From the IMG/VR virus record IMGVR_UViG_3300020430_000009: DNA of 64,000 bases. The stretch is one strand, 5' to 3'. Below the pieces are notes generated by a model that was not told where the DNA came from, ran no database searches, and worked only from the letters and a program-made list of their open reading frames with translations. Source of the stretch: a virus. Position numbers and translations under genes: made by a program. Below are positions 5,352-46,837 of this stretch, in pieces; the stretch's first letter is position 1; each line of letters opens with the position of its first letter.

Positions 5352-5359
5352 TATAAATA
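5352..5359 (+). promoter_or_regulatory. T4-type late promoter
   Basis: TATAAATA 12 nt before ORF 5371. Confidence 0.8.
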
Positions 5360-5370
5360 AAGGTAATGGA

Positions 5371-5589: not shown

Positions 5590-5597
5590 GAAATAAC

Positions 5598-22060: not shown

Positions 22061-22069
22061 GGAGTAAAA

Positions 22070-23092: not shown

Positions 23093-23113
23093 TTACTTTA
23101 ATATAGGTAAATA

Positions 23114-23431: not shown

Positions 23432-24045
23432 TGAGAAACTTTAAATATTTTACTGAAAACTTTAAATTTTTTCCAGAAGAACCATTAACAAATATATCTA
23501 TTCCTAGTCCTAATCTGGATCTCGATTCAGCAGTAGAAAAACTAAAAAAGTTAATGTCTACACGGACTCCAGAAAACGAAGAATCTATACGTTTACACGA
23601 TGAACAACCGTTCTATGCAATAGAAAAATATTGCGAAAAGAATGGATTGATGTTTCATGACAATGAAATGATGGATATTGTAAGAGACGCAAATCCAACC
23701 ATATATCATTTTAAAAACAAATTCAAACTTACAAGACCGTTTGATCACGATCGAAGTATCGCACCTATGGTAAGTACTACTAACAAAACTTTTTCTTATC
23801 CAAGTGGTCACGCCACTCAATCCATGCTGGTAGGTCTATATGTAAGTTCAAAGTTTCCGGAACATAAAGAAGGTGTAATCGAAGCTGCTAAAGAATGTGG
23901 ATATGGTAGAGTGTTAGCAGGTTGGCACTATATGCAAGATTATACAGCTGGCAATCTTCTTGCTGAAAAAATGTTTCCATTGATGAATAAATCAGACTAC
24001 GGAAAAGCTCTATCTAAAAATGATAAACTTGACAGAAAACGCTAA
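23431..24045 (+). CDS. PAP2/acid phosphatase-haloperoxidase family protein
   Basis: KNKFKLTRP, SYPSGHA, RVLAGWHY motifs; starts MRNFKYFTE. Confidence 0.85.
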   Translation: MRNFKYFTENFKFFPEEPLTNISIPSPNLDLDSAVEKLKKLMSTRTPENEESIRLHDEQPFYAIEKYCEKNGLMFHDNEMMDIVRDANPTIYHFKNKFKLTRPFDHDRSIAPMVSTTNKTFSYPSGHATQSMLVGLYVSSKFPEHKEGVIEAAKECGYGRVLAGWHYMQDYTAGNLLAEKMFPLMNKSDYGKALSKNDKLDRKR

Positions 24046-24338: not shown

Positions 24339-24367
24339 TTTACATTCATCAATTTTTGTGGTATAAT
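24339..24367 (+). promoter_or_regulatory. Sigma70-like early/middle promoter
   Basis: TTTACA-N17-TATAAT before gp43. Confidence 0.8.
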
Positions 24368-24376
24368 ACTTATATT

Positions 24377-26863
24377 ATGATGTTCTATACAAATGTTCTA
24401 AGATTTAAAAATAATATTCTCTATCGTGGTTATAGCAATGGCGAAAAAGTCATGCGCAAAGACCATTTCAAACCAAAGTTTTATGTAACATCTCAAAAAG
24501 ATACTGGTGTTTACAGTATTGACGGTAAGCCTGTTGGCTCTGTAACGTTTGAAAGTATGTGGGATGCAAACCAGTGGCTAAAACAAAATATAGATGTTTC
24601 AGGTAGAACCATATATGGCAACAAAAAATTTATTCAACAGTACATTACCGATAAGTTTCCAAAAGATATACAATTTAATCGTGACGACATCGATGTAGGT
24701 ACCTTTGATATTGAAACAGATTATGACAATGGATTTCCTACACCAAGTGAGGCTAGCCAAAAAATTCTGTCTATCACGTATAAATCATCTAAGAGTAAAT
24801 TATATCGTGTGTGGGGCTATGGCGACTTTAATGAATCAAAATCTTTAATTCAGCCTGTAAGATATTATAAATGTAAAGATGAAGCTGAGTTATTATCAAA
24901 GTTTCTTGAATTTTGGTCAAATCCAAAACGTACACCAGACGTGATCACCGGTTGGAATGTTAGGTTCTTTGATATTCCTTACCTTATTGTTCGCGTATCA
25001 AAAGTTCTAGGTGTCGGCGAAATATTTAAGTTCTCTCCATGGGGCATGCAACCTGATGCTAGAGACGTACTTAGGCGTGGTAAGTCAGAAACTGTATATG
25101 AAATCCCAGGCATTCAGTGTTTAGACTATATGGAATTATTTCAAAAGTTTGGCTACTCTTATGGCCCTCAAGAATCATATGCTCTTAATCATATCGCATA
25201 CGTAGTTCTTGGCGAAAAGAAACTATCATTTGAAGAATCAGGTTCACTTAAAAATCTTTATAAAGATGATCACCAAAAGTACATTGATTATAATATGAAA
25301 GATGTTGACTTAGTCGATCGTCTCGAAGATAAAATGGGTCTTATTACGTTGGCCATGACTATGGCTTATAAAGGTGGTGTTAATTATCAAGACACCTTTG
25401 GCGTTACAGCTATATGGGAATCTATTATATATCGAAGACTGAATCAGCAAAATAAAGTAGTTGATATTAACAATGATCCTCCTCCAGCAAAACGTGACTT
25501 TGCTGGTGGCTATGTTAAAGATCCGCAAATTGGTAGACATGATTGGGTAGTATCTTTTGATTTGAATTCTCTATATCCTAACTTAATTGTGCAGTATAAT
25601 ATGTCGCCTGAAACTATTGTCGATCAGTCAGAAGTTGAAGGTGTACAATATTATCTTGCTGGTTCAGCTGTAAAAGGTAATTTTGCAGTTGCAGCCAACG
25701 GTTCAAGATACAGAAAAGATGTTGATGGTATTATACCACAAATTATCGAAGAATATTATGATGAACGTGTATCAGTTAAGAAGATGATGCTGGCATCTCA
25801 AAAACAAATACAGGAAGGATATAGTTATGATTTGGAAAGGGATATCAACACTTTGGAAAATCGTCAAATGGCTATTAAAATCTTGCTTAATAGCCTTTAT
25901 GGTGCTCTTGGCAATCGCTATTTTCATTATTTTGATATGAGATTAGCAGAAGGCGTAACTTTATCTGGTCAACTTGCGATTCAATGGGCTGAAAAAGCAT
26001 TGAACGCATCTATGAATGAGTTGCTAGATACACAAGATGATTATGTTATTGCTATCGATACAGATTCTTTATATGTAAACTTTGGTCCACTAGTCAAAAA
26101 GTTAAATCCAAAAGATCCAGTCAAATGGCTTGATAAAATTTGTAGCGAACACTTTGAACCAGTACTGCAAAAAGCATATACAACGCTATTTGATAATATG
26201 AATGCTCATAAAAACAGAATGACTATGGCTCGTGAAGGTATATCCGACAGAGGTATTTGGACTGCAAAGAAAAGATATATTTTAAACGTACACAATAATG
26301 AAGGCGTACAATACAAAGAACCTAAACTTAAGATTATGGGCATTGAAGCCATCAAGTCATCTACACCTGAAGTTGTACGTGGTAAGTTCAAAGAAGTATT
26401 CAAAATGATTATATCAGGTTCTCAATCCGACACTCAAAAGTTTATTCAAGAGTTTAAAGAAGAGTTTAGGACATTTCAACCTGAGCAAATAGCTTTTCCA
26501 AGAAGAGTAAGTAATATATCTGACTGGTATGACAGAAAGACCATATACAAAAAGAGTTGTCCTATACATGTACGTGGTTCTTTACTCTTCAATAAGTACG
26601 TCAAAGACGCAAAGTTACAAAATAAATATGAACTAATTACAGGTGGTGATAGAATAAAATTTGTATATTTAAAACTGCCGAACCCCATAAAAGAAAACGT
26701 AATATCTTTTCATGAAGCGTTACCAAAAGAACTAAACATACATAAGTATGTCGATCATGATACGCAATTTGAAAAGACTTTTATTGAACCACTTAAACTA
26801 ATACTGGATGCTGTTGGCTGGCAGACAGAAGAACAAGCAACATTGGAGGACTTTTTTACATGA
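24377..26863 (+). CDS. gp43: Family B DNA polymerase
   Basis: [40 protein letters not shown]; uninterrupted. Confidence 0.99.
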
Positions 26864-27279
26864 GTACAAATTGGTTTAAAGACATGCAAGCCATGCATGA
26901 AAAATATGGCGTAAATAAATGGATGAGCGATGAAAAGAAATCAGAGTGGTCAAGGCTATCCAAGTTTATGCAATTTCGGCTTGATATGATGCAAGAAGAA
27001 CTTGATGAAACAAAGAAAGCTTTTGAACAAAAAGACGCGCCAGAGATGGTCGATGGTATTATCGACTTATGTGTTTTCGCCATCGGCACTCTAGAAGTAT
27101 TTGGAGTAGATGCTAACAAGGCGTGGGATGAAGTATATAAAGCCAATATGGCAAAAAATGTTGGTATTAAAGAAGGTCGACCTAATCCACTTGGATTACC
27201 AGATTTGGTAAAACCAGATGGTTGGGAAGGTCCAGTACATGAGGATAATTGTGGAAATATCACTGACTCTTTTCAATAG
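26860..27279 (+). CDS. All-alpha NTP pyrophosphohydrolase (MazG/PRA-PH-like; candidate dCTPase)
   Basis: QEELDET...EMVDGIIDL acidic metal motif, KANMAK. Confidence 0.75.
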
Positions 27280-28699: not shown

Positions 28700-29065
28700 A
28701 TGGTACAATTAGAATTATTTACAAATAGCTGGGGTGTTAACTCAGGTTTTAGGAGATTAGCAGATGAGTTACATGCTCTTTTACCAATGCAAGGTAGATG
28801 TTCAAAGCCAATGTCTGATAATAAGCATTTAGAAAAGTTTAGAAGAGCTCAAAACGCAGCTTATGACTTCTTTAACAACGGTCTTTGTAACAAAAGAGGA
28901 TTGTTCATTAGTGTATTTGGTCAAGATATTGACACTTGGAATATTCCTACTTACAAAAGTTTCAGTGGATTTACTAAAGTTAGCTGGGAACAATGGGAGA
29001 GCCACATCGAAAAGATTATGACTCCTATTATTATAGCCGCGGCTAAAGAACAAGGAATTAAATAA
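28700..29065 (+). CDS. Hypothetical early protein
   Basis: Strong SD GAGGAG after promoter; YDFFNNGLCN. Confidence 0.65.
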   Translation: MVQLELFTNSWGVNSGFRRLADELHALLPMQGRCSKPMSDNKHLEKFRRAQNAAYDFFNNGLCNKRGLFISVFGQDIDTWNIPTYKSFSGFTKVSWEQWESHIEKIMTPIIIAAAKEQGIK

Positions 29066-29397
29066 TGAAAAATATGCATAGAAAAGAATCAGTAAAAGTC
29101 TTAGAAGAATGTATGCAATTGCAACTTCGCAAGTCTGAAGACTATCAAAGCAGTGGCTCCAATATTACTCAAGCCATGCATTATCGTCGTGGTGTCGATA
29201 CCATTCATGACATTATCTTAGGCAAAGTTATTCGAGCTACCTCTTTGCTCGAGTCTGGTAATAATCCAAACTTCGAGTCTCTCGAAGATACTTACAAAGA
29301 TATGATAAACTATTGCTCTTTTGCAGTATCATACATGCGTGGCAAAATGGAAGGTCAATCTACTGGTCACGATATGTTTAACCGGAAAAAATCATGA
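29065..29397 (+). CDS. Nucleotide-modification-associated all-alpha protein (Nmad1/DUF1599-like)
   Basis: RKSEDY, KVIRA, ESLEDTYKDMINY pattern. Confidence 0.7.
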   Translation: MKNMHRKESVKVLEECMQLQLRKSEDYQSSGSNITQAMHYRRGVDTIHDIILGKVIRATSLLESGNNPNFESLEDTYKDMINYCSFAVSYMRGKMEGQSTGHDMFNRKKS

Positions 29398-30143
29398 AAA
29401 TATTAATCACAGGTCATACTGGCTTTATCGGTCAAAGCTTATGGAAATATCTCAGCGAGTTTAATGATAATCAACTTATGGGTCTTGACGCAAATGACGT
29501 CAGGTCTTTTGATATTACAAAAGATAATTTAAGTGATGTCGTAAGTAATAAAGATGAAATTGATTTAGTAATACACCTTGCTGGTATTGGAGGCGTAAGA
29601 GAAAGTCTTGAAAATCCTAAGAAATATTGGGACACCAACGTCGAAGGTACTAAAAAAGTACTAAGTTTTTTTAAAAATAATTACGTGTTAGTTGCTAGTT
29701 CTAGTTCTCAATATGAACCTCATTTAAATCCATACGCGGCGAGTAAACACTTAATTGAATACATTCCACATAAGCAAGTTTGCTTTATGAGATTTCATAC
29801 AGTGTATGGTCCTAATCCAAGAGCAAAGATGTTTTTTGATAAATTACTAAATAATGAACTTAAGTACGTTACTAATCATGAAAGAGACTTTATTCATATT
29901 GATGATTTATGTACAGCCATAGATACTATAATTACAAATAAGGTTGTTGGTACTATAGATATAGGTACAGGTAATCCAGTTAGAATAGATAAGATAAGAC
30001 CTGATTTACCAGTTAAGCTTTCTACTGTCGGCGAAAGACAGAGAACCTGTGCGAATACTGCCAAGTTAAAAGCATTAGGCTGGAGACCAAACATTAACGT
30101 ACGAGATTTTTTGAAGGAGAATGGTTATGAATACAACGCGTGA
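29394..30143 (+). CDS. NAD-dependent NDP-sugar epimerase/dehydratase (extended SDR)
   Basis: TGHTGFIG, HLAG, ASSSS, YAASK, RFHTVYGP, RDFIHIDD. Confidence 0.9.
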   Translation: MKILITGHTGFIGQSLWKYLSEFNDNQLMGLDANDVRSFDITKDNLSDVVSNKDEIDLVIHLAGIGGVRESLENPKKYWDTNVEGTKKVLSFFKNNYVLVASSSSQYEPHLNPYAASKHLIEYIPHKQVCFMRFHTVYGPNPRAKMFFDKLLNNELKYVTNHERDFIHIDDLCTAIDTIITNKVVGTIDIGTGNPVRIDKIRPDLPVKLSTVGERQRTCANTAKLKALGWRPNINVRDFLKENGYEYNA

Positions 30144-30804
30144 CATTGCTAAATTTTTTATTAATAGTCTTAAAAATGAAGAGTTTGTTACTGATAGAAC
30201 CGGTCAAAAAACTATTGAAATATTAGGTGCTACATTCTTAGCCGATGAACCAGCGATATTTGGTACTCCAAACGAATCTTACATTGAGATCGAAAAAGCT
30301 TGGTATGAAAGTCAGTCGACTAATGTTAATTGGATGTCTGAAACTTATAATAGAAATGTACCTGAAGCGTGGAAGTATGCTGCAAATTCTTATGGTGAAA
30401 TCAATTCTAATTATGGCCATATAATTTACTCAGATAAATATCATCATCAGTTTGGCAGAGTTCTTGATGAATTGCTTAATAATAAAGACGGTCGTAGAGC
30501 TACAATGGTCTACACCAGACCAAGTATATGGGAGGAATACGATGAAGATGGTAAGAATGATTTTATATGTACTAACGCCGTTACTTATTACATTCGTGAT
30601 GGTAAAATACACTGCGTGGTCCAAATGCGCTCAAACGATGTCGTGTTCGGATATAAAAATGACTATGCTTGGCAGCTTCATGTTTTAAAACAATTAACTG
30701 ATGAATACAATGCGTGTTCCATGGAAGGAATGGATGTTGGTAATATAATCTGGCAAGTACAAAACTTGCACGTATATGAAAGGCACTTTGATCTTGTCAA
30801 ATAA
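30127..30804 (+). CDS. gp42: dCMP hydroxymethylase (thymidylate synthase superfamily)
   Basis: KTIEILGATFLADEP, GEINSNYG, DFICTN, MRSNDVVFGYKNDYAW closely match T4 gp42 (RSNDVVFGFRNDYAW), including the dCMP-specifying Asp. Confidence 0.92.
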   Translation: MNTTRDIAKFFINSLKNEEFVTDRTGQKTIEILGATFLADEPAIFGTPNESYIEIEKAWYESQSTNVNWMSETYNRNVPEAWKYAANSYGEINSNYGHIIYSDKYHHQFGRVLDELLNNKDGRRATMVYTRPSIWEEYDEDGKNDFICTNAVTYYIRDGKIHCVVQMRSNDVVFGYKNDYAWQLHVLKQLTDEYNACSMEGMDVGNIIWQVQNLHVYERHFDLVK

Positions 30805-31267
30805 ATTTAACTTTAGAGTAGATACAAAGCCCGGTGTATGGGATAAGAGATTTTTAAAAGTAGCTGCTGAAGTGGCCACTTGGTCTAAGGATCCATCAAC
30901 TAAAGTTGGTGCGATCGCTGTAAAAGATAAGAAAGTAATTGCACAAGGGTACAATGGCTTTCCAAAAGGAATAAACGATCTAAGCGATAGATATAACGAT
31001 AGAGAAACAAAATACAAATATATCGTACATGCTGAAATGAACGTGATATATAACGCTGCAGAAAATGGTGTATCATTACGTGGTTCAGACTTGTACGTTT
31101 ACGGGCTCCCAGCTTGTAGTGATTGTGCAAGAGGCATTATACAAGTTGGAGTAAATAGAGTCATCATGCCTACGCAAGAACTACCAGATAAATGGAAGAA
31201 ATCGTGGGAGATGACTGTTGAAATGTTCGACGAGGCTGGTGTGATATGGAACTTTGTAACGTTATAA
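30776..31267 (+). CDS. cd: dCMP deaminase
   Basis: SKDPSTKVGA, GYNGFP, HAEMN, PACSDCA zinc motifs; true start may be TTG 30794. Confidence 0.93.
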   Translation: MKGTLILSNKFNFRVDTKPGVWDKRFLKVAAEVATWSKDPSTKVGAIAVKDKKVIAQGYNGFPKGINDLSDRYNDRETKYKYIVHAEMNVIYNAAENGVSLRGSDLYVYGLPACSDCARGIIQVGVNRVIMPTQELPDKWKKSWEMTVEMFDEAGVIWNFVTL

Positions 31268-31593
31268 TAGTTGGTCAAAATCCATCTAATGTTGAAAACT
31301 CTGGTTCAATAAAACGTCTATGGAAGTGGACTCAATCTTGGGGTCTAGAAAACTGGACATTTATTAACTGCAGTGACGACGTTGGACAAAAATATACCAT
31401 TGACTACGAAAGATTAAAAGAAGCTTCTACATACGATAAGGTTATCGCACTTGGTAATGTGGCTTCTGACGCTCTTAAAAAAGTTGGTGTAGACCATTTT
31501 AAAATGCCGCACCCGTCTGGTTTGAACAGACAGCTCAATGACAAGAGCTTCGAAGAAAGTAAAGTTAAGGAGTGTTATAACTACTTACACTAG
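31246..31593 (+). CDS. Small uracil-DNA-glycosylase-superfamily protein
   Basis: VIIVGQNP (motif A), VIALG, MPHPSGLNR (motif B). Confidence 0.7.
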   Translation: MELCNVIIVGQNPSNVENSGSIKRLWKWTQSWGLENWTFINCSDDVGQKYTIDYERLKEASTYDKVIALGNVASDALKKVGVDHFKMPHPSGLNRQLNDKSFEESKVKECYNYLH

Positions 31594-31663
31594 AGATTAT
31601 CGTGAGCTACTCTACTCCAGACAAAACACTCACGCTAATAAACTGATATAAAGGAGAATATAA

Positions 31664-32962
31664 ATGTCTGAAAAAATTAAAGTCGCCATCGTTGGTGTTG
31701 GCAACTGCGCAAAATCCCTAGTCGAAGGGATTCAATACTACAAAGAAAATCCAAAAGACACGGTTGGTCTAATGTACGATGATATTGGTGGTTACAAAGC
31801 TGCTGATATTGAATTTGTCGTAGGCTTTGACGTGGATAGAAGGAAAGTAAATAAGCCATTGGTAGAAGCTTTAAGAGCTGCTCCTAATTGTGCTATGGAT
31901 CATGTAACTGAAATTTTAGAAAATGGTTCAAATTCTCAAGGTTGTGTTAAGAGAGGAGCTAAAGTTTATTCTGGTCCAGAAATGGACGGGGTAGCACCTC
32001 ACATGCTTGACTATCCAGCTGAAGTATCTTTTAGAACTGGTGCTCAGGCTCATATATCTTTTCAAGATATTGTAGATTTACTAGAAGATAATAACGTTGA
32101 TGTAGTTATCAACTATCTTCCAGTTGGATCTGAAAGAGCTTCTGAATTTTATATGGACGCAGCCATAAAAGCTGGTTGTCATTTTGTAAACTGTATTCCA
32201 ACTCTAATTTCTACTAAAGATTCACAAAGAGTAGAACAGAAGTTTATTGATGCTGGTTTAACAATCGTAGGATCTGATATGAGATCAGCTTGGGGTGCAT
32301 CTAGAATGTCTGAAGTACTTCAAGGCGCGATGCTAGACTCTGGTCTTAAAGTAACTCAGCATATTCAAATGAACATGGCTGCAGGTTCTACTCAAGGACA
32401 AGAGAATATTAGGACTGGTAGAACTGCCAATACTGATTTCTTAAATATGGCAAAGGTAGAAAGACTGCACAATAAACACGTCTCAAAAGAAAATGTGTTA
32501 AAAGGACAAAACACTGTTCGAGATGAAAAGATTGCGGGTAGTACTTTATTTGCTGGTCCATCTTTGACTGTCCAACAAAAGCCGGGAGGTAGGTTTGTAG
32601 GTTCAGATCAAAAGATAGCTAACTTTGATATCGTTGGCTATGGATTTGGTGGAGCTAGATATGAACTTACAGCGAGGCTTGCTGTTCAAGACTCTCCGAA
32701 CTCTGGTGGTGTAGTTGTATCTGCTATCAGGTTCTGTAAAGTAGCTTCTGAAATGGGAATTGTTGGTTATCTTCGTGGTCCATCGGCTTGGACACAAAAG
32801 ACACCACCACTTCAACTTAAAACAGACGAGGCAAAATTTGAATGTGACATGTTAGCTGCAAGATCTCTTACAGATATTACTGAAGCTCAACATGTAGATA
32901 ACAATCCATGTGCTAAAAACTTAGCTTACACATTCCAAGCTGGAGAAACAGATTATGAGTAG
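31664..32962 (+). CDS. ino1: myo-Inositol-1-phosphate synthase (bacterial Ino1 type)
   Basis: VAIVGVGNCAKSLVEG, FDVDRRKV, VVINYLPVGS, FVNCIP, GSDMRS, N...DFLNM, K.VSK, DSPNSGGVVV.AIR.CK. Confidence 0.9.
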   Translation: MSEKIKVAIVGVGNCAKSLVEGIQYYKENPKDTVGLMYDDIGGYKAADIEFVVGFDVDRRKVNKPLVEALRAAPNCAMDHVTEILENGSNSQGCVKRGAKVYSGPEMDGVAPHMLDYPAEVSFRTGAQAHISFQDIVDLLEDNNVDVVINYLPVGSERASEFYMDAAIKAGCHFVNCIPTLISTKDSQRVEQKFIDAGLTIVGSDMRSAWGASRMSEVLQGAMLDSGLKVTQHIQMNMAAGSTQGQENIRTGRTANTDFLNMAKVERLHNKHVSKENVLKGQNTVRDEKIAGSTLFAGPSLTVQQKPGGRFVGSDQKIANFDIVGYGFGGARYELTARLAVQDSPNSGGVVVSAIRFCKVASEMGIVGYLRGPSAWTQKTPPLQLKTDEAKFECDMLAARSLTDITEAQHVDNNPCAKNLAYTFQAGETDYE

Positions 32963-33362
32963 AAAGCCTTTTGAAAGTTGGGAAGAAATTCCTAAAGGTG
33001 TAATCAACTCTTATGATATTGATGGTGTCATATATATGGGTGAAGGTCTAGATGGTTTAAGACCAGGGCCAAGAGATATCGTGATTACTGGCAGATCGGT
33101 CGAGACAGAAGTATTGACTAAGAAAATGCTTAGTGATAAAGGTATACATAACCCATTATATATGAACAATAAGAGTAAAGACTGGAATAACAGAGAGCAA
33201 TCTGGATTTCACAAAGGCTGGACTCTATTTCATCTTGAACAGATTGGATATAGATTTGGTATTCATTACGATGACGATCCAATACAGATCGAAAAGATAA
33301 GACAAATGATGCCACATATTCATATCGTTCATGTAAACCATGATTTAGTTCCAAAGGAGTAA
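32955..33362 (+). CDS. HAD-superfamily phosphatase (candidate inositol-1-P phosphatase)
   Basis: YDIDGV, ITGR, K, YDDD motifs; overlaps the ino1 stop. Confidence 0.7.
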   Translation: MSRKPFESWEEIPKGVINSYDIDGVIYMGEGLDGLRPGPRDIVITGRSVETEVLTKKMLSDKGIHNPLYMNNKSKDWNNREQSGFHKGWTLFHLEQIGYRFGIHYDDDPIQIEKIRQMMPHIHIVHVNHDLVPKE

Positions 33363-33364
33363 AT

Positions 33365-34435
33365 ATGTACAATTATGATTGGTGGTCTTACGATAAAGAC
33401 ATTATGAAAGATTTTAATCATTTCTTGAAAAAGATCAACACTCGTGCTTGTATCAATTATGGTTTTATAAATGAAGATTACGTCAATATCAATCGTCACG
33501 GCGAAGTCGATCATGGCTTAGGCCGTGACGTTGAGTACTTTCACCCAACAATTACGTTGGATGATAGAATGAGATATATAGGTACTGTTATTGCTCAACA
33601 AGATATGTCCCCCTTTAATATCTTAGGCAATGGTATCATATCTCACTTCTACGGAGCACGTGGCTGTCATATGGCAGTCACTGGCTCCAATGATCCAAAT
33701 GATTGTTTTGTAGATTTTGATAGACTAGCTGATAATGATAAAGAATATCTTAACCATCTTAGACTTAATATCGATAATTCAAAGAGGCTTAAAAAACCAA
33801 TATGGGGAACTACAGAGCTTCATACTTCTTTACAAGCTGCTTCAAGAAATTATTGTCGTAAAAAGTATGACGATCCAGAAAGAGTATTTCATCCAGTTGA
33901 CATAGTTGATTGGGTTGCTTCTTTTAGAGATAATGGTACGTACGAAGAACTTTATGAAGCCGATCACATTGGTCAAGCTTATAAGATATTAAGAAAGTTA
34001 CCGGGTGTTGGTGAATACTATGGATTTCATGGTGCTGCTTCTACGAGCGTTTTACCTCAAATGAAATATTATCATGATGACAAGTTTGTGGCACCAGGGC
34101 CAGGGGCAGTTTATACAATAGGTCTTATGTGGCCAAGAGCGCCACGCAAACATTACGCAGAAGCTATTTACTTTTTAAGAGAAAATAGCGATGAGATTGG
34201 TCTTACAACTAACGTTGAATTTCACCCAGGCGCTTATAATATAGACATGCCAAATGGAAAGAAGTTATTTAGAGAAGATCAAAAGACTCTTAAATATTAC
34301 GGTACGGAAGTTCTGTCTTGTCAGTTTGGTATATACTTACAGATTAGAGAAGACGCTAAGATGTGTGCAAAGCGTCAAGTTTCAAGAGCCACTGCACTTA
34401 CCGATCAGTCTACTTTAGAGGAGTTTATGCAATGA
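33365..34435 (+). CDS. aGPT-Pplase/hm-base DNA transferase-like protein (HhH glycosylase-like fold)
   Basis: LRKLPGVGEYYGFH HhH-like segment and FVAPGPGA, resembling the GPGA motif of aGPT-Pplase clade 1; inside a base-modification operon. Confidence 0.55.
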   Translation: MYNYDWWSYDKDIMKDFNHFLKKINTRACINYGFINEDYVNINRHGEVDHGLGRDVEYFHPTITLDDRMRYIGTVIAQQDMSPFNILGNGIISHFYGARGCHMAVTGSNDPNDCFVDFDRLADNDKEYLNHLRLNIDNSKRLKKPIWGTTELHTSLQAASRNYCRKKYDDPERVFHPVDIVDWVASFRDNGTYEELYEADHIGQAYKILRKLPGVGEYYGFHGAASTSVLPQMKYYHDDKFVAPGPGAVYTIGLMWPRAPRKHYAEAIYFLRENSDEIGLTTNVEFHPGAYNIDMPNGKKLFREDQKTLKYYGTEVLSCQFGIYLQIREDAKMCAKRQVSRATALTDQSTLEEFMQ

Positions 34436-35469
34436 AAGCTATAATGAACTGTCCATTTATTCCTATCGCCACCAGAGTTCAATCTCACAGAGGAGCTCTT
34501 GGTGTAATATATGCAGATCAGTTAAAACAAACTGGAGTTGATGTAGAAATCAATTGGGCTGGTAAGATAGAAGACCACAATCAGTTTGATGAGATGTATG
34601 TATACCATGGCAGCGACTGGACAGGTGGACTAAACTTTTTTGGTGGAGTTGCAGGATTTCCATACGTTGAAAATACTAGAAACTTTTCACAGTTTAAAGG
34701 AAAAGTCTACTCATTAGAAATACCATTTCCACCATATCATGAGATGATAAAAGAGAGAATTGATAGGGCTATGGAAAAAGGTACTGCAATTCTCGACGCA
34801 TGGAAAGACGTAGATCTAGATAATCTTAAAAGAATGCATGATACTGCAGAAGTTATTAAATATCCAAAGGTCACTAGAAATCTAGTGATAGGTGATAGCC
34901 ATTCCATTTGCATGTATCGTCCAGAATGGACAGTAAATTCTGTTCCATTTAAAACTTTAAATGGAGCTATAAATAGTGGTCTACATACATTTATAGAAGA
35001 TGTCGGTAAAATTGAGGATTTTGATAAGCTTGAAGTTTACTTTGGCAATATTGATGTTCGACATCACTTATGTAGAATTGGCGATAATGTAGACGAAAAC
35101 GTAAAAGACTTAGCCAAAAGGTATGTGGAAGCAGTTGAAGCTGTAGACATAAAAGAAGTTTATATTTACGAGTTATTGCCTATTGAAGATGAATCTAGAA
35201 AATTACCAAAGTCTGGTTTCTATAAGAACAAACCTTTTTGGGGAACATGGGAACAACGTAACAGATGCAGGTTATTATTTAGAGATTATATAGAACAGTT
35301 TGCTACTCGAGCTAAAATCATAAGATGGACTGACTATTTGTTAAATAAAGAAGGTCAACTAGATTTTAAACACATGGAGATGCCACATTCTATTCACTTA
35401 TCACGTGGTTCATATCCTCATTGGACTGGTGAAGAAAAGCCAAACACATTAGAGGAGTTTTTTGTATGA
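34432..35469 (+). CDS. Putative DNA transferase: beta-glucosyltransferase-like N-domain plus SGNH-like C-domain
   Basis: FDEMYVYH...LNFFGG...FSQFKGKVYSLE aligns by eye with T4 BGT YDRLIVVN..INFFGG...FMAKYKSKIYYL; C-part has GDSH, GNID, HSIH. Confidence 0.55.
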   Translation: MKAIMNCPFIPIATRVQSHRGALGVIYADQLKQTGVDVEINWAGKIEDHNQFDEMYVYHGSDWTGGLNFFGGVAGFPYVENTRNFSQFKGKVYSLEIPFPPYHEMIKERIDRAMEKGTAILDAWKDVDLDNLKRMHDTAEVIKYPKVTRNLVIGDSHSICMYRPEWTVNSVPFKTLNGAINSGLHTFIEDVGKIEDFDKLEVYFGNIDVRHHLCRIGDNVDENVKDLAKRYVEAVEAVDIKEVYIYELLPIEDESRKLPKSGFYKNKPFWGTWEQRNRCRLLFRDYIEQFATRAKIIRWTDYLLNKEGQLDFKHMEMPHSIHLSRGSYPHWTGEEKPNTLEEFFV

Positions 35470-36659
35470 AGTACGCAAGTATAGTACCACTAATCGGCGG
35501 TGAAACCATCGCCATGCAAAACGTATTTAATAAGAAACCGGAGTATATTTTAAGCTATGAAGCCTTTCAACCAAATGATCAAAACCTTGTGGAGTACTAC
35601 AAAAGAGAAGTCCCCTACCATCTTCTTAATGGTAATCGGAAACCTGCTCTTCCTTACGTCGACGCTGTTAATACCGTTTGCCCTTGTGCTGGTCTTTCTA
35701 GTCTCAATCCTTCAGCCAATTCTGATGCTGCTATTAACGATTGGATGCCTACCACTGCTCGTTACGTTTTGGGCACACTCAAACCTAAAGTATTCTGGGG
35801 CGAAAACGCGCCACGATTTGCTTCAAGAATGGGTGAGCCTATTAGAGAAAACCTCAGACGTATTGGGCAAGAAAACGGATATACTTTCAGCATATATAAA
35901 ACGAAAAGTATCTTACATGGACTCGGACAAGTAAGAGATCGTTCATTTTATTTTTTCTGGAAGGGAAATAAAGTACCTAAACTTGAATATATAAAAAGGA
36001 AGCACGAAAGAATTGAGGATACGATTCGTTCCGTGAAACGCAGGTCGAACGACCCAATGAATGTCCTTACTAATTCAAGTGTTCCAAGTGAGAATCCTTT
36101 TTACTCATTTGTTCTTAATGAACTTGAGGGAGGGAAATCGCATGCAGAGTTCCAAGATACTTTGCCTTTGTCGATCAACGTATTAACTTATATAGAGTCA
36201 AAAACAAAATATGATGTAGTTGCCAAATGGATGTTCAAAAATGGATATGATAAAGAGGCAGCAAAATGCGAAAGAATCCACAAAAAATTAGAGGCAGGTT
36301 TAAACTTTATGAGAAAGAACATAGAGTTTCCGAGGAACTATATTGGAGCGTTCGTAGGCCATTTGCCTACTATGCTTACACACCCCGACGAAGACAGGTT
36401 CTTAACTATTAGAGAATGTCTATCAATTATGAAATTGCCAGAAGATTTTATGCTTCAAGGCGGTGTCAAAAATGTTAATCATATATGCCAAAATGTGCCA
36501 GTAACAACTGCACAAGATATGGCTGAAAATGTTATAAAATTTTGTGATGGAAGATTGGATAACCAACTTATAGAGACAGACTACGCTATGCAAGATAATA
36601 AGAGTAAGTCTATAAGAGTTGAAAATAATCCTTTACAACTAGATGAATTTATGTTATAA
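35466..36659 (+). CDS. DNA cytosine-C5 methyltransferase-fold protein with atypical motif I
   Basis: CPCAG (IV), ENAP (VI), QVRDRS (VIII), RFLTIRECLSIMKLPEDF (IX), QNVPV (X); motif I is VPLIGG instead of FxGxG. Confidence 0.8.
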   Translation: MKYASIVPLIGGETIAMQNVFNKKPEYILSYEAFQPNDQNLVEYYKREVPYHLLNGNRKPALPYVDAVNTVCPCAGLSSLNPSANSDAAINDWMPTTARYVLGTLKPKVFWGENAPRFASRMGEPIRENLRRIGQENGYTFSIYKTKSILHGLGQVRDRSFYFFWKGNKVPKLEYIKRKHERIEDTIRSVKRRSNDPMNVLTNSSVPSENPFYSFVLNELEGGKSHAEFQDTLPLSINVLTYIESKTKYDVVAKWMFKNGYDKEAAKCERIHKKLEAGLNFMRKNIEFPRNYIGAFVGHLPTMLTHPDEDRFLTIRECLSIMKLPEDFMLQGGVKNVNHICQNVPVTTAQDMAENVIKFCDGRLDNQLIETDYAMQDNKSKSIRVENNPLQLDEFML

Positions 36660-36660
36660 T
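36632..36660 (+). promoter_or_regulatory. Sigma70-like early/middle promoter
   Basis: TTTACA-N17-TATAAT inside the MTase 3' end. Confidence 0.7.
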
Positions 36661-36681
36661 GTAAACAAAATGGAGATGCGC

Positions 36682-37131
36682 ATGTTTAAATATTACATTG
36701 GACTAATATGGAGTCTTGCTTTTTTAGGCGGCTTCTTTAGTGGTCAAAGTCTCGTATTCGCTGCCGATATGGATATTGAGATGTTAAATAAAAGAGCTGA
36801 CGGCGAAAAGATGGTATATTCTGTCGACGTAGCTAAGGTAGATGTCGGCGATACTATTACTTGGTTACCTACAAGTAAAGGTCATAACGTACATTTTATT
36901 TCTGCTCCTGACGGCTGGAAAATACCAAAGAAAAGTAAAAATAATAAAGAAGTTAAGATTACTTTTGACGTCCCAGGAGTTTACTTATATCAATGTACTC
37001 CTCATAAAGCCATGGGTATGATTGGCTTAGTAGTTGTTGGTGGTAATACTGATAATTTAGATAGTATTAAAAAAGCCAAGGTACTAGGTAAAAGTAAAAA
37101 GAAACTTAAAAAGATCTTAGGAGATGTTTAA
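36682..37131 (+). CDS. Pseudoazurin/plastocyanin-type blue copper protein
   Basis: Signal peptide, EMLNK, GDTITW, KGHNV, YQCTPHKAMGM (His, Cys, His, Met ligands). Confidence 0.9.
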   Translation: MFKYYIGLIWSLAFLGGFFSGQSLVFAADMDIEMLNKRADGEKMVYSVDVAKVDVGDTITWLPTSKGHNVHFISAPDGWKIPKKSKNNKEVKITFDVPGVYLYQCTPHKAMGMIGLVVVGGNTDNLDSIKKAKVLGKSKKKLKKILGDV

Positions 37132-38177
37132 TGTCTATTATGGACAAATTGAAAAAGAACAGTAAGTCTGACTACACGTCAATTCTTGCTGATTCTAAAT
37201 TTTTTAATGAAAAAGACATGGTGGCTACAGAGGTACCTATGATGAACGTAGCTCTATCAGGCTCCATGGACGGTGGCGTAGCGCCAGGACTTACAGTTCT
37301 GGCCGGCCCATCAAAACATTTTAAGACTTCATTTGCTCTTATTATGGCAAGTGCTTATCTTAAAAGATATGACGATGCAGTACTTTTATTTTATGATTCA
37401 GAGTTTGGTTCTCCTCAATCTTATTTCCAAAACTTTGATATCGATACAAATAGAGTATTGCATAGTCCAATAACTAATGTGGAAGAACTTAAGTTTGATA
37501 TTATAAGTCAACTCGAAGGTTTGGACCGAGGCGATAAAGTTGTCATTGTTATCGATTCAATTGGTAACTTAGCCTCAAAGAAAGAACTTGAAGATGCTAT
37601 CAATGAAAAGTCAGTGGCAGATATGTCAAGAGCTAAAGCACTAAAAGGTCTGTTTAGAATGATTACACCTTATCTTAACATGAAAGATATTCCACTTTTA
37701 GCTGTTAATCATACATACAAAGAGATTGGCCTATTTCCAAAAGACGTAGTATCTGGTGGTACTGGTATCTACTACAGTGCAGATAATATTTGGATTATTG
37801 GTAGACAACAGGACAAGCAGGGTACAGAAATTAAAGGCTATCACTTTGTAATCAACGTGGAGAAGTCAAGATATGTTAGAGAAAAGTCTAAAATTCCTAT
37901 TTCTGTTAGTTGGGACGGTGGTGTTCAACGTTGGAGTGGTATTCTTGATATTGCTATCGCTGGTAATTACGTTGCTAAGCCTTCTAACGGTTGGTATTGT
38001 AGGGTCGATCGCAGTACTGGAGAATTATTGGAACCAAAAGTTAGAGAAAAAGATACCCTTTCGGAAGAGTTCTGGAAACCCGTAATGGAAGAAACTGATT
38101 TTAAGCAGTACATCATAGATAGATTTGCTATTGGTAATAATGGTGGAATCAATATGGAGAAGATGGATCAGCATTAA
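37131..38177 (+). CDS. uvsX: RecA-like recombinase UvsX
   Basis: AGPSKHFKT, YDSEFG, IDSIGNLASKKE, VSGGTGIYYSAD. Confidence 0.97.
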   Translation: MSIMDKLKKNSKSDYTSILADSKFFNEKDMVATEVPMMNVALSGSMDGGVAPGLTVLAGPSKHFKTSFALIMASAYLKRYDDAVLLFYDSEFGSPQSYFQNFDIDTNRVLHSPITNVEELKFDIISQLEGLDRGDKVVIVIDSIGNLASKKELEDAINEKSVADMSRAKALKGLFRMITPYLNMKDIPLLAVNHTYKEIGLFPKDVVSGGTGIYYSADNIWIIGRQQDKQGTEIKGYHFVINVEKSRYVREKSKIPISVSWDGGVQRWSGILDIAIAGNYVAKPSNGWYCRVDRSTGELLEPKVREKDTLSEEFWKPVMEETDFKQYIIDRFAIGNNGGINMEKMDQH

Positions 38178-38479
38178 TGGTCATGGAAGAAAACGTACAT
38201 TATGAAATTATTCCTGATAGAGGCGACGAACAGTCTTGGAATGTCAGAATATTAACAGGACCATTTACTGAAACGGTAATTAAATATGGAGTTGTCAGGT
38301 TCAATGAGATCCCTGGCAACATGTCTTTTAACTTTGATATAATTTACACTCCTGATTCAGAACTGAAAGTAAGTGACGAGCCATTACAAGATTTTGTAGG
38401 CGAGATGCTCGAACAGATTATGGCTCAAGGTATAAAAGACGGACAAGTGATAACAAGGGAGAAACCAGTTGGCGACTAA
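38177..38479 (+). CDS. Hypothetical protein at gp40 position
   Basis: Between uvsX and gp41 as for T4 gp40; no decisive motif. Confidence 0.5.
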   Translation: MVMEENVHYEIIPDRGDEQSWNVRILTGPFTETVIKYGVVRFNEIPGNMSFNFDIIYTPDSELKVSDEPLQDFVGEMLEQIMAQGIKDGQVITREKPVGD

Positions 38480-39836
38480 TTTAGAACAAACTGTATTAAA
38501 AAATCTTCTCACTAACGAGAAGTACATGCGAAAAGTTCTGCCCTTCATTAAGCCGGATTACTTCGAAGGCGTTTATAGAATATTGTTTAAAGAAGTTGGA
38601 AAGTTTGTCGCTAAATACAATAAACTTCCATCAGCAGAATCATTTAAGATTGAGTTAGATCAGTCTGATAAATTAACTGACGATCAATATAATATGGCTA
38701 TGGATATCGTTCCACAGCTTTTTACTAAAAACGAGTCAGATGAGCAATGGCTCATGGATACCACAGAAAAGTGGTGTCAGGACAGAGCAATATATAATGC
38801 AATCATGGAGTCTATATCGATAATTGATGGCAAACATGAAACTTTAAACAAAGGCGCATTACCAGATCTTTTAACTAAAGCTCTTGGCGTAGGATTTGAT
38901 CTTACTGTTGGTCATGATTACATAGAAAACGTAGAGGACCGATATGAGTTTTATCACAGAGACGAAGACCGTATTCCATTTGATATTGAATTTTTTAATA
39001 AAATTACCAAAGGAGGAGTTCCTAATAAAACTCTTAATATCGCTCTTGCTGGGACAGGTGTTGGTAAGTCTTTGTATATGTGCCATGTTGCTGCTAATGC
39101 ATTAACAGACGGCCGTGATGTTTTATACATTACTATGGAAATGGCTGAAGAAAGAATAGCTGAACGTATTGATGCCAATTTATTAAATGTACCAATTGAC
39201 CAGCTCGATAAATTATCAAAAGACATGTTTACTACAAAAGTAGCAGATATCGCAAGAAAGACTACTGGTAAGCTAATCATAAAAGAATATCCTACTGGTG
39301 CAGCTCATTCTGGCCACTTTAGAGCTTTATTAAATGAACTTAAACTTAAACGACAATTTGAACCAGATATAATCTTTATTGATTATTTGAATATCTGTTC
39401 AAGTTCTAGAATGAAAGGACTTGGTGGTGCAATCAATACATACTCTTACGTTAAAGCAATTGCTGAAGAGTTACGCGGCCTTGCGGTCGAGTACGACGTA
39501 CCGATCTTCTCTGCAACGCAAACGACTCGTTCTGGTTTTAGTAACTCGGATGTTGGGCTTGAAGATACGTCCGAGTCTTTTGGATTACCCGCTACCGCGG
39601 ATCTAATGTTCGCTCTTATAAGTACTGAAGAGCTAGAGCAAAAAGGCGAGATAATGGTCAAACAGCTTAAGAACAGGTATAATGATCCAACTGTACATAA
39701 AAGATTTGTCATTGGCGTAGATAGAAGTAAGATGAGACTTTTTGATGTAGAAGAAGACAGTCAAAACTTAGTAGACGATACCCCAGTGTTTGATAAGACT
39801 GATACTGGCAAAAGATTTAAAGACTTTAAACTTTAG
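38469..39836 (+). CDS. gp41: Replicative helicase
   Basis: LAGTGVGKS, ITMEMAEE, FIDYLNI, ATQTTRSG, SESFGLPATAD, KQLKNRY. Confidence 0.98.
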   Translation: MATNLEQTVLKNLLTNEKYMRKVLPFIKPDYFEGVYRILFKEVGKFVAKYNKLPSAESFKIELDQSDKLTDDQYNMAMDIVPQLFTKNESDEQWLMDTTEKWCQDRAIYNAIMESISIIDGKHETLNKGALPDLLTKALGVGFDLTVGHDYIENVEDRYEFYHRDEDRIPFDIEFFNKITKGGVPNKTLNIALAGTGVGKSLYMCHVAANALTDGRDVLYITMEMAEERIAERIDANLLNVPIDQLDKLSKDMFTTKVADIARKTTGKLIIKEYPTGAAHSGHFRALLNELKLKRQFEPDIIFIDYLNICSSSRMKGLGGAINTYSYVKAIAEELRGLAVEYDVPIFSATQTTRSGFSNSDVGLEDTSESFGLPATADLMFALISTEELEQKGEIMVKQLKNRYNDPTVHKRFVIGVDRSKMRLFDVEEDSQNLVDDTPVFDKTDTGKRFKDFKL

Positions 39837-39880: not shown

Positions 39881-40564
39881 ATGAAGGTCAAGCTGATAAG
39901 CTATTCAAGGCCACCTATTATAGGAGAGATAAATGAAGATCTACAAGAACTTATCGCGTATTGCGCCCGTGTATCGAACCCCTCGAACCAAAACAACAGT
40001 AAAACGTCAGAAAAGCTGTTACGTTACCTTGCCAAACACAAACACTGGTCGCCTTTCGAGATGGTTAGCGTTAACTTGGAGATAGAAACCACTAGAGATA
40101 TCGCTAGGCAGATACTCAGACACAGAAGTTTTTCTTTTCAAGAGTTCAGTCAAAGATATGCAGATCCGGTAGAAGAACTTGAATTTACTTTAAGAGAAGC
40201 AAGACTTCAAGATCAAAAAAACAGACAAAACTCGATAGCTACTACAGACGTAGATCTACAGATGGATTGGCTGAAAGAACAAAGTAAAGTTTGGAGTCAA
40301 GCTAAAAAATCTTACAAATGGGCTATTGAAAACGGAATAGCGAAAGAAGTAGCTCGAGCAGTTCTTCCGGAAGGCTTGACACAGTCACGCCTCTACGTTC
40401 ACGGAACTATTAGATCGTGGATACATTTTATAGAATTAAGATCAGCAAATGGCACGCAAAAAGAAAGTATTGAAATAGCTCAAGCGTGCGCAGCAGTAAT
40501 TGGAGATATATTTCCACTCATAAAGGAGTATTGCCATGAGCCAACAAGTAGTTTACATAAATAA
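39881..40564 (+). CDS. thyX: Flavin-dependent thymidylate synthase
   Basis: HWSPFE, RQILRHRSFSFQEFSQRY, EVARAVLP. Confidence 0.96.
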   Translation: MKVKLISYSRPPIIGEINEDLQELIAYCARVSNPSNQNNSKTSEKLLRYLAKHKHWSPFEMVSVNLEIETTRDIARQILRHRSFSFQEFSQRYADPVEELEFTLREARLQDQKNRQNSIATTDVDLQMDWLKEQSKVWSQAKKSYKWAIENGIAKEVARAVLPEGLTQSRLYVHGTIRSWIHFIELRSANGTQKESIEIAQACAAVIGDIFPLIKEYCHEPTSSLHK

Positions 40565-45211: not shown

Positions 45212-45221
45212 AAAATAATCG

Positions 45222-45250
45222 TTTACATTCAATAATTTTTGTGGTATAAT
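45222..45250 (+). promoter_or_regulatory. Sigma70-like promoter of tmRNA/tRNA-Cys/radical SAM unit
   Basis: TTTACA-N17-TATAAT. Confidence 0.8.
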
Positions 45251-45256
45251 ATATAG

Positions 45257-45517
45257 TATATAGCGATGAAACTGCGTAAAAAATAGACTGGACCCGGGGG
45301 CGGTACCCGGCGCCTCCACCAAAATACTGTTATCGAGTTTTTTTATGGGGGCGAAATAGGATCGACAGGTATTGAATAGCAAAGTGGAGCTGTCCGGCGG
45401 AAGCTCGGTTAACGCAACGTTCAACTAAACGCAAACGATAACTTTGCACCTCAGGAGTTCGCGCAAGCCGCGTAATTCCTATGCGCCCGGAGAGAGCGTG
45501 GAAACAGAATCTCTCCA
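45257..45517 (+). ncRNA. ssrA: Circularly permuted (two-piece) tmRNA, alphaproteobacterial type
   Basis: T-arm CCGGG-GGCGGTA-CCCGG and CGCCTCC-A-CCA (ends 45321), 25-nt spacer, then GGGGGCGAAATAGGATCGAC (45347); 7-bp acceptor with G3.U70; tag 45431-45475 ANDNFAPQEFAQAA*. Outer ends approximate. Confidence 0.93.
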
Positions 45518-45521
45518 CTAT

Positions 45522-45595
45522 GAGGGTATGGCAGAGTGGCTATGCGATGGACTGCAAATCCATTTACCTTGGTTCGATTCCAAGTATCCTCTCCA
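45522..45595 (+). tRNA. tRNA-Cys(GCA)
   Basis: GAGGGTA/TATCCTC acceptor, ATGGA-CTGCAAA-TCCAT, GGTTCGATTCC, encoded CCA. Confidence 0.95.
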
Positions 45596-45610
45596 AATTT
45601 AAGGAAACAA

Positions 45611-46837
45611 ATGTTAATATCAAAACACTTTTGCCCGCAGCCGTTTGTATACATTTATCCTAATCATGATGGCTCTTGGAAACCATGCTGTAAGGCTGGA
45701 ACTTATCCAAAGAAAAATATGTCATTTGACGAATGGTGGTATGAAGATCAAGATTTGAATGATCTGAGAAAAGCACTACTTAGCGACGAGTGGAGTCGAC
45801 CATTGGAAGATGTGTGCGGCCCTTGTTTTGGACCAGAGTCTCGAGGTGTAAAATCATACAGACAATTTCAAGTAGAGACTTGGTCAGAGCCTCTAGCAAA
45901 GGGAAAGATAGAAAGACTAATATCTTTTTTTAAACATACTGGAGAAGTTCAAGCTGGCGAAAGGATGTTTATCGTACAAGTTAAAGGAATTGGAAACCAA
46001 TGTAACTTAAAATGTTATATGTGTGCCCCACATAACTCTACGAGCAGAACCACAGAACTACTCAAAGGCACTGAAGAAACTGCAGAATTATTTTATAAAG
46101 GCAAAGGGATGTCTAGGCTTATTTTTAATAAGACTGCGTATCTAAATACAGATTCTGAGAAGAAACAGTTATTTGACGTTATAGAAGAGCTAGGTCCATA
46201 TATAAAAAAATTAAACTTTAGTGGTGGTGAACCTGCGATGATAGGAAACTACTATGATTTGATGGATAAGATTATAGAAACTGGAAACAGTAAACATATA
46301 CAGATATTCATGAACAGTAACTTAACTAGATTAAATCTAAAAAACAGAAGTATGGCAGACTATTTTCCACGTTTTGATCGTTTTGATATTCAAGCTTCTG
46401 TCGACGACATATTTGAAAGAGATGAATACATCAGATATCCATCTAAGTTTAAAAAAGTTTTAGAAAATTATCAATATTTAAACAGCATAAATAACGTTAA
46501 CATGTCTATTAACGTGACGTGGTCGTTACTTAACGCCGCCAACGCTGAAAACATATGCGACTTTTTTACTGAAAATAAATATAGAATAAGTAGGATGACA
46601 AATTTTGTAAGTAATCCAATTGAATTACACGTAAAAAATCACCCACTTAAAGATGAGTTAATGGAAAGGTTTAAAGAGTCAAAGTACAGAACAGTACGAG
46701 AGGTAGCTTTAGAAATGAACGATGAGTATAACGAATTAGAATTTTTTAAGGCAGTGGCATACATAAAGGATTTAGACAGAATTAGAAACACACAAAGTTG
46801 GAAGGTATTTCCAGAGCTATCTAATTGGTTGAAATGA
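45611..46837 (+). CDS. Radical SAM protein with N-terminal SPASM/twitch-like Cys domain
   Basis: FCPQPF...KPCC...CGPC; CNLKCYMC; FSGGEP; MNSNLT. Start reset to 45611 because the longer ORF overlaps tRNA-Cys. Confidence 0.9.
   Translation: MLISKHFCPQPFVYIYPNHDGSWKPCCKAGTYPKKNMSFDEWWYEDQDLNDLRKALLSDEWSRPLEDVCGPCFGPESRGVKSYRQFQVETWSEPLAKGKIERLISFFKHTGEVQAGERMFIVQVKGIGNQCNLKCYMCAPHNSTSRTTELLKGTEETAELFYKGKGMSRLIFNKTAYLNTDSEKKQLFDVIEELGPYIKKLNFSGGEPAMIGNYYDLMDKIIETGNSKHIQIFMNSNLTRLNLKNRSMADYFPRFDRFDIQASVDDIFERDEYIRYPSKFKKVLENYQYLNSINNVNMSINVTWSLLNAANAENICDFFTENKYRISRMTNFVSNPIELHVKNHPLKDELMERFKESKYRTVREVALEMNDEYNELEFFKAVAYIKDLDRIRNTQSWKVFPELSNWLK

Follow-up and report, generated by a model that had tools for sequence, protein, structure and literature searches.

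A C5-cytosine-methyltransferase look-alike with a rebuilt cofactor half closes predicted cytosine-replacement cassettes in marine phages

The window analyzed here, a 64,000-nucleotide stretch of viral DNA (IMG/VR record IMGVR_UViG_3300020430_000009), derives from a T4-like marine myovirus and carries at 35466-36659 an open reading frame (ORF) whose product has the fold of the DNA cytosine-C5 methyltransferases (MTases). The initial annotation had described it as a C5-MTase with a broken S-adenosylmethionine (SAM) motif in a phage whose cytosines should already be substituted at C5, and had suggested that it might couple a ligand such as inositol to 5-hydroxymethylcytosine (hmC). The ATG of this gene, which we call the MTase look-alike, overlaps the stop codon of the upstream ORF (ATGA, 35466-35469); no upstream extension is possible, and the same Met begins the protein in all relatives. 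The 17 bases at its 3′ end are shared with the start of a plastocyanin-like gene. The gene and its motifs are listed below, with conservation counted in 130 full-length sequences, each representing a cluster at 50% identity and sharing 31-58% identity with the query.

35466-36659, + strand: C5-cytosine-methyltransferase-fold look-alike with a rebuilt cofactor pocket, 397 amino acids (ORF, PF00145 match and AlphaFold2 model)
35484-35501, + strand: V7-P8-L9-I10-G11-G12, which replaces SAM motif I, F-x-G-x-G-G (family counts; HhaI register, HhaI residues 12-23)
35553-35558, + strand: S30-Y31 at the end of strand beta2, facing E40-W41 of HhaI, the ribose-binding acid and aromatic (counts and secondary structure of the model)
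35682-35687, + strand: P73-C74, motif IV with the catalytic cysteine (C in 129 of 130; aligned to the PCQ of MET1/DNMT1, HhaI and HaeIII)
35802-35813, + strand: E113-N114-A115-P116, motif VI, ordinarily ENV (E 130, N 128, A 124 and P 120 of 130)
35928-35942, + strand: Q155-V-R157-D-R159, motif VIII (Q 126, R 130 and R 130 of 130)
36489-36500, + strand: Q342-N343-V344-P345, motif X, ordinarily G-N-[AS]-V (Q 126, N 124, V 127 and P 114 of 130)

The look-alike matched the Pfam family DNA_methylase (PF00145) over residues 10-357 (E 1.1e-11; 45.3 bits, cut-off 22), and it also matched PHROG 116. An AlphaFold2 model computed from 32 family members (pLDDT 93.3, pTM 0.90) was aligned by VIA-align to M.HaeIII (Z 25.7, 279 residues, root-mean-square deviation 3.1) and to M.HhaI (Z 25.5, model residues 1-366 on chain residues 12-326), the deviation being 3.1-3.4 over 279-297 residues for the two enzymes. 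MET1/DNMT1 and the carboxymethyltransferase CmoX ranked high when the model was searched with Foldseek. Searches against solved MTases in the PDB and an hhalign comparison with E. coli Dcm aligned motifs IV-VIII and IX-X, and in none of these sequence and profile comparisons did residues 1-55 align. The N-terminal register was therefore taken from the structural alignment (model residue 1 on HhaI residue 12), which places V7 on HhaI F18 and L9 on G20.

As a control for the conservation counts, we used 30 ordinary PF00145 proteins drawn from 121 bacterial genomes, in 29 of which the N-terminus was visible. All of the motifs named in the initial annotation (the catalytic PC, ENxP and QxRxR, and VPLIGG at motif I) are present in the ORF. 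Its description of the SAM motif as broken was correct in that the sequence departs from F-x-G-x-G, but rather than having eroded, the motif has given way to [IV]-P-L-[IV]-G-G, which is fixed in ∼125 of the 130 representatives, down to 31% identity (P8 126, L9 125, G11 127 and G12 124 of 130). No representative has Phe at position 7 (0 of 130), whereas the controls read [F/C]-x-G-x-[G/M]-x in 29 of 29 and keep the first Gly in every case. At the site of motif II, where the controls mostly have E or D, the family has S or T (S30 in 115 of 130) followed by an aromatic residue, Y, F or W, at position 31 (122 of 130) and a variable position 32 (S, P, D, K, E or T). Position 55 after strand beta3, the site of the adenine-binding Asp in ordinary enzymes, is variable as well, so that by alignment and model neither the motif II acid nor the motif III Asp appears to be conserved. 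Residues 1-55 nevertheless contain seven positions conserved at ≥90%, and F34 (118 of 130) and N37 (121 of 130) are among the further residues that are widely kept.

Changes were also found around the reactive cysteine. P73-C74 is followed by A-G-L-S rather than the ordinary Q-x-F-S, with A, S or G at the Q position across the family, motif VI is ENV in 30 of 30 controls rather than ENAP, and the recognizable motif X of the controls is GN[AS]V. The smaller residues near the reactive carbon of the look-alike, A or S for the Q of PCQ and A for the V of ENV, would fit a C5 substituent or a bulkier partner, as engineering work on M.HhaI reportedly suggests. Because the replaced motifs are conserved family-wide and contrast with the control enzymes, we conclude that the cofactor half has been rebuilt and held fixed, and that it reflects neither chance nor decay. 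We propose a new family, the 'P-L-x-G-G' C5-MTase-like proteins of cytosine-substituting phages, encoded next to a thymidylate synthase (TS) homologue of the Asp type and recognized by the signature [IV]-P-L-[IV]-G-G, PC-[AS]-G-L-S, E-N-A-P, Q-x-R-x-R and Q-N-V-P, all elements of which are present in the look-alike.

A search of 1.84 billion cluster representatives returned 728 relatives, of which 242 reached E 1e-30 or better; the 2482 homologues returned by a second search, of metagenomes, came mostly from ocean assemblies, Tara among them. Among 50,697 phage records, megablast with 32900-37200 gave no match, and tblastn with the look-alike found only the S-TIM5 group and phage XG4, at ∼32% identity. 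The matches in the ESM Atlas were only to viral clusters labeled 'DNA methyltransferase'. A scan of 185,579 species genomes in GTDB gave 18 matches, all of them on contigs of metagenome-assembled genomes with phage-like size or content, and around these 18 no restriction-modification setting was evident. We conclude that the family is confined to phages. Some metagenomic members are fused to long C-terminal extensions (598-1462 amino acids) which, apart from one CXXC finger, matched nothing in the window or in the compared loci. That finger (PF02008, E 6.6e-7), at the end of one fused protein, belongs to a domain known in eukaryotic readers of unmethylated CpG. We found no paper describing the family, an absence that does not prove it unpublished; a jumbo-phage survey and the databases list such genes simply as cytosine methylases (DCMs).

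The gene lies downstream of a set of nucleotide-metabolism genes within a replication region, as follows.

24356-26863: family-B DNA polymerase
26860-27279, + strand: MazG/PRA-PH-type NTP pyrophosphatase, a candidate dCTPase and the start of the core (PF01503, E 9e-10; upstream in relatives)
29065-29397, + strand: DUF1599 (nucleotide modification associated domain 1), core (PF07659, E 1.2e-7; kept in relatives)
30121-30804, + strand: gp42-type dCMP hydroxymethylase, constant partner (E 3e-66 to T4 dCMP hydroxymethylase)
30776-31267, + strand: dCMP deaminase, constant partner (PF00383, E 2.5e-20; co-occurrence in relatives)
37131-38177: UvsX
38469-39836: gp41-type helicase
39881-40564: ThyX

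The premise that a gp42 enzyme supplies a substituted cytosine was borne out. The ORF at 30121-30804, 4.7 kb upstream of the look-alike, is far closer to the T4 enzyme than to any thymidylate synthase (∼1e-13 or weaker), and it keeps the specificity-determining Asp of '..NDYAW' (T4 D179), which reads NNYAW in the entry for the D179N mutant. The combination of an Asp-type TS homologue, a deaminase and a PRA-PH protein has been described as characteristic of metavirome contigs whose cytosine is modified (bioRxiv 10.1101/2024.12.05.627091). Related TS homologues are also able to form 5-hydroxy-dCMP (PMC13326640); hmC as the predicted product is therefore not proven and leans on the close likeness to T4 gp42. 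Given a T4-like gp42 with the Asp that specifies cytosine, C5 of the phage's own cytosines should already be occupied.

This arrangement is shared by relatives of the look-alike that are 35-96% identical, in the order MazG, a 319-amino-acid ORF, DUF1599, gp42-like gene, dCMP deaminase, a variable block, look-alike and UvsX. Where at least 6 kb of upstream DNA was available, the gp42-like and deaminase genes were both found upstream in 34 of 38 loci, the four exceptions being the most distant members. In the window the variable block and its two best-defined products are as follows.

31246-35469, + strand: variable decorating module encoding UDG-like, inositol-1-phosphate (Ins1P)-synthase-like, HAD/PNK-like and HMUDK_hel kinase-like proteins and a 346-amino-acid SGNH-like protein
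33365-34435, + strand: HMUDK_hel kinase-like protein with the helical domain of 5-hydroxymethyl-dU DNA kinase (PF18723, E 2.4e-9)
34429-35469, + strand: 346-amino-acid protein directly upstream of the look-alike (PHROG 13881; C-terminal SGNH/GDSL-like domain)

The cassette that holds the HMUDK-like gene has a cytosine-specific TS homologue. The HMUDK-like product may phosphorylate hmC; alternatively, it may act on 5-hydroxymethyluracil if the neighboring deaminase converts some 5-hydroxymethyl-dC nucleotides, an activity shown for some TS-linked deaminases. Residues 148-337 of the 346-amino-acid protein resemble GDSL esterases and acetyl-transferases (Z 10-12.5), with an invariant G-D-S-H; the protein had no sequence match in the PDB, and its N-terminal 147 residues have no assigned fold.

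The block upstream of the look-alike differs among relatives. In the window and in relatives that are 35-96% identical, the look-alike comes immediately after genes of the Ins1P-synthase, HAD, HMUDK-like and SGNH-like types. Look-alikes 62-71% identical to it close cassettes in which glycosyl-type modules stand in place of the Ins1P-synthase and HMUDK genes. These include a T4-type DNA alpha-glucosyltransferase (AGT, PF11440; E 6e-33, and E 3e-92 in a 52% identical relative), and other blocks carry a TET-associated glycosyltransferase (TAGT, PF20691), a UDP-galactopyranose mutase (GLF) with a 370-amino-acid protein, or nucleotidyl-transferases and epimerases. When 83 look-alike sequences were placed on a quick maximum-likelihood tree, the module labels were interleaved, requiring 18 changes against a minimum of 8, at least 6 of them forced for the inositol/HMUDK label, and the clade of the window was nested among glycosyl-type clades. 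None of the 397 alignment columns separated proteins of inositol-type cassettes from those of glycosyl-type cassettes, and 72 columns were invariant across both. We conclude that the look-alike has a fixed place at the end of a constant core and that the inositol set is one of several interchangeable modules.

More distant homologues are found in named phages. The homologue in cyanophage S-TIM54 is 32% identical, keeps all of the family motifs and adjoins a gene annotated 'ThyA' (5114-5953), whose product shares ∼30% identity with many TS homologues, the RL38J1 5hodCMP synthase among them. Because it has Asp where E. coli TS has N177, this 'ThyA' is probably a dCMP-modifying enzyme, with a methyl, hydroxymethyl or hydroxy product. 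In Pseudoalteromonas phage XG4 the homologue comes last after gp42-like, HAD-like and nucleotidyl-transferase/kinase genes and two glycosyltransferase-like genes. The best viral structure match was gp301 of Bacillus phage G (TM-score 0.80 over 414 columns, 20% identity), annotated as a DNA cytosine methyltransferase and equally uncharacterized. Like the look-alike, gp301 has PC-S-G-L-S and ENAP and lacks the first Gly of motif I (..AFIFGG), but its motif VIII is M-R-R-M-R and its motif X is Q-G-V-P, and both host and phage type differ. Two annotated alpha-glucosyltransferase genes, a glucose-1-phosphate thymidylyltransferase gene and a HAD gene lie at distances of 3-10 kb from it (phage G 209000-231000), and 13 kb away is another TS homologue, the second in this phage, which carries Asp at the N177 position. 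This cluster predicts a glycosylated C5-substituted cytosine in Bacillus phage G.

The look-alike is best read as a catalytically intact predicted enzyme that works on DNA and forms a constant part of a cytosine-replacement system; we take it to be a live enzyme because the Cys, Glu and Arg residues of its active site are invariant. From its fold, its motif pattern, the family-wide conservation and the gene context, we infer a substrate, independence from SAM and a chemistry. The initial annotation had considered ordinary methylation redundant if gp42 replaces all dC, and our analysis agrees that SAM-dependent methylation of the ordinary kind is unlikely: the Phe and Gly of motif I, the acid of motif II and the Asp of motif III, to which SAM is bound in all of the control enzymes and also in CmoX, are replaced throughout the family while the catalytic residues stay, and the cytosines of the phage should already carry a C5 substituent. 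We therefore favor, at a probability of roughly 40%, a SAM-independent 'finishing' enzyme that would use a C6 thiolate adduct and act on phage DNA after replication. On duplex phage DNA, such an enzyme would turn a cytosine-type base out of the helix and, with the base gripped by Glu113 and Arg157/Arg159, attach Cys74 to C6; chemistry at C5 would then run without SAM. Its likeliest target would be undecorated hmC, from which the hydroxyl could be expelled by way of an exocyclic methylene and a small cellular nucleophile captured; alternatively, it might act on residual unsubstituted C. In either case no cytosine would be left sensitive to restriction.

Several observations weigh against a finishing enzyme of this kind. 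G11-G12, the aromatic residue at the position of HhaI W41 (122 of 130) and N343 are kept, and because of this the look-alike may have a divergent SAM site or a site for another nucleotide-like cofactor. T-even phages reach fully glucosylated hmC DNA without such an enzyme. Minimal cassettes have no obvious gene to supply a nucleophile, and the target-recognition insert (residues 171-299) is poorly conserved in the family, as in ordinary sequence-specific methylases. Moreover, if the TS homologue of S-TIM5 makes 5-methyl-dCMP, hydroxyl exchange could not be the function of the whole family.

One explanation for the retained features is that the look-alike is a genuine but divergent SAM-dependent DNA cytosine-5 methyltransferase, acting on residual C at some motif in phage DNA or possibly on host DNA. 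The PF00145 score above cut-off, the intact catalytic motifs, G11-G12, the aromatic residue at 31, N343, the variable insert typical of a target-recognition domain and the listing as DCMs in databases and the jumbo-phage survey are all consistent with this idea. We nevertheless consider it unlikely, since the first Gly of motif I is Leu in 125 of 130 members but Gly in 29 of 29 controls, and by alignment and model the motif II acid and motif III Asp seem not to be conserved. The Phe, Glu and Asp are retained even in CmoX, whose cofactor is an analogue of SAM (PMC12783734). In addition, a gp42 system leaves little substrate in phage DNA, and in the GTDB scan the family was never found in cellular genomes or beside restriction genes. 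We also considered the possibility that the target is unmodified cytosine in host DNA, where a cofactor-free C6 adduct would lead to C-to-U deamination or to a covalent DNA-protein block. In that case the gene would have to travel with cytosine replacement, because the C5-substituted DNA of the phage would be immune while host DNA became marked for degradation. The strict co-occurrence with Asp-type TS homologues whatever the decorating module, and a look-alike sequence that does not vary with the module, would fit such a role, as would the small UDG-superfamily ORF in many cassettes. SAM-starved C5-MTases deaminate their target C, and T4 directs the C-specific tools EndoII/IV and Alc against host DNA. 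However, the polar residues N37, D/E38 and S30, strongly conserved in what was the cofactor half, suggest that the pocket holds a ligand and is not empty, and the UDG-like ORF has only 115 amino acids, so that an attack on host DNA appears rather improbable.

Coupling of inositol or inositol phosphate made by the neighboring genes to hmC, as first suggested for this locus, draws on the position of the look-alike directly after the Ins1P-synthase, HAD, HMUDK-like and SGNH-like genes in the window and in 35-96% identical relatives. Relatives just as close carry glycosyltransferase modules and lack inositol genes, the module has candidate transferases of its own, and the same protein closes glycosyl-type cassettes; the link finds no support in view of the repeated module swaps, the interleaved tree and the 0 of 397 columns that track the module. 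We reject such coupling as the general function and regard it as very unlikely even in the window. The appearance of Dnmt2 structures among the fold matches (Z ∼20) raises the further possibility of a substrate other than DNA, such as tRNA, or of a DNA binder with no catalytic role. This is hardly credible given the invariant catalytic Cys, Glu and Arg and the tight linkage of the gene to genes for DNA precursors and DNA glycosylation; Dnmt2 itself, moreover, keeps its SAM motifs.

Taken more broadly, the finishing enzyme would be an instance of the first natural family with the C5-MTase fold to give up SAM for another covalent C6-thiolate chemistry on DNA, which we regard as a possibility that falls clearly short of probable. 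Such a family could derivatize or exchange the hydroxymethyl group of hmC, hydroxymethylate residual C using a folate-type donor that sits in the rebuilt pocket, or deaminate host C; in any of these cases the look-alike would count among the regular components of cytosine replacement in abundant marine phages. The family is large, spans abundant ocean phages and cultured phages (the S-TIM5 group, XG4 and Bacillus phage G), and currently carries the annotation of an ordinary cytosine methylase. Should it prove independent of SAM, it would represent a new type of reaction both for phage DNA hypermodification and for a textbook enzyme fold, and possibly a tool for site-directed chemistry on hmC or cytosine. 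The layout of a constant core with a swappable module offers a simple rule for reading cytosine-modification cassettes in metaviromes. What is new here is the control sample, the analysis of core and modules, the tree and column tests that speak against inositol, and the extension to S-TIM5, XG4 and phage G.

Other features of the window touch on its host and gene content. A permuted tmRNA of the alphaproteobacterial type lies at 45218-45519 on the + strand (Rfam RF01849, 139.8 bits; RF04321, 115.2 bits) and hints at an alphaproteobacterial host. It is directly followed by a tRNA-Cys (45522-45595) and by a gene for a radical-SAM protein. ARAGORN called only the three tRNAs and not the tmRNA. 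The two thymidylate synthases and the dCMP deaminase of the window match the description of pelagimyophage group C (PMC7029224). Auxiliary genes at 21455-24045 and 45536-46837 encode a HAD acid-phosphatase-like protein, a PnrA/Bmp-type ABC substrate-binding protein (E 7e-60), a PAP2 phosphatase and the radical-SAM protein. The gene that overlaps the end of the look-alike is found only in the closest relatives (the 96% clade) and is an odd companion to an alphaproteobacterial-type tmRNA.

36643-37131, + strand: plastocyanin/azurin-family gene (PF00127, E 7e-16)

Among known systems, the PF00145 enzymes M.HhaI, M.HaeIII and Dcm share with the look-alike the two-domain fold (Z 25-26, about 280-297 residues), the Pro-Cys, the E-N of motif VI, Q-x-R-x-R, motifs IX and X and an inserted target-recognition region. 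The look-alike differs from them in its motif I, [IV]-P-L-[IV]-G-G, in having no conserved motif II acid or motif III Asp, in PC-A, ENA-P and Q-N-V-P where they have PCQ, ENV and GN[AS]V, and in occurring only in phages, beside cytosine-specific TS homologues. C5-MTases deprived of SAM in vitro remove or exchange hydroxymethyl groups, couple thiols to hmC and deaminate C to U; these are slow side reactions, but they indicate that the fold is capable of the proposed chemistry with an empty cofactor pocket. We know of no natural enzyme dedicated to such chemistry. Among the cassette genes scanned, with 64 kb of the phage genome covered, there was no Tet_JBP match, and a pre-replicative route of the gp42 type is present instead, although a TET-associated glycosyltransferase does occur in the cassettes of some relatives.

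By analogy, clade-2 aGPT-Pplases from phages M6 and ViI, enzymes of thymidine hypermodification, provide a precedent for thiolate attack on C6, since an active-site thiolate adds to C6 in DNA pyrimidines that bear an activated 5-hydroxymethyl group and a group is exchanged at the 5-methylene (PMC8989533); the resemblance to the look-alike is mechanistic only, as these enzymes belong to an unrelated family and act on phosphorylated 5-hydroxymethyluracil derivatives. CmoX of Synechococcus phage S-B43, a DNA cytosine C5-carboxymethyltransferase (PDB 8YF3; PMC12783734), was the one solved structure that a plain sequence search with the look-alike recovered (E 8.6e-6, C-terminal part only). It uses a SAM analogue, keeps Phe25, Glu47/Phe48 and Asp69 for the adenosyl part, and binds the carboxyl side with SPPC and Arg350 (PMC12783734). 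The look-alike has C-P-C-A in place of SPPC and Asn343 at the position of HhaI N304 and of this Arg, it lacks the Phe, Glu and Asp, and the annotated cassette genes of the window and of its relatives include no CmoA; a reading as a CmoX-type enzyme that uses carboxy-SAM was therefore rejected, its defining residues being absent. What CmoX shares with the look-alike as proposed here is that a phage homologue of the C5-MTases transfers no methyl group, and by this analogy such homologues can change their cofactor.

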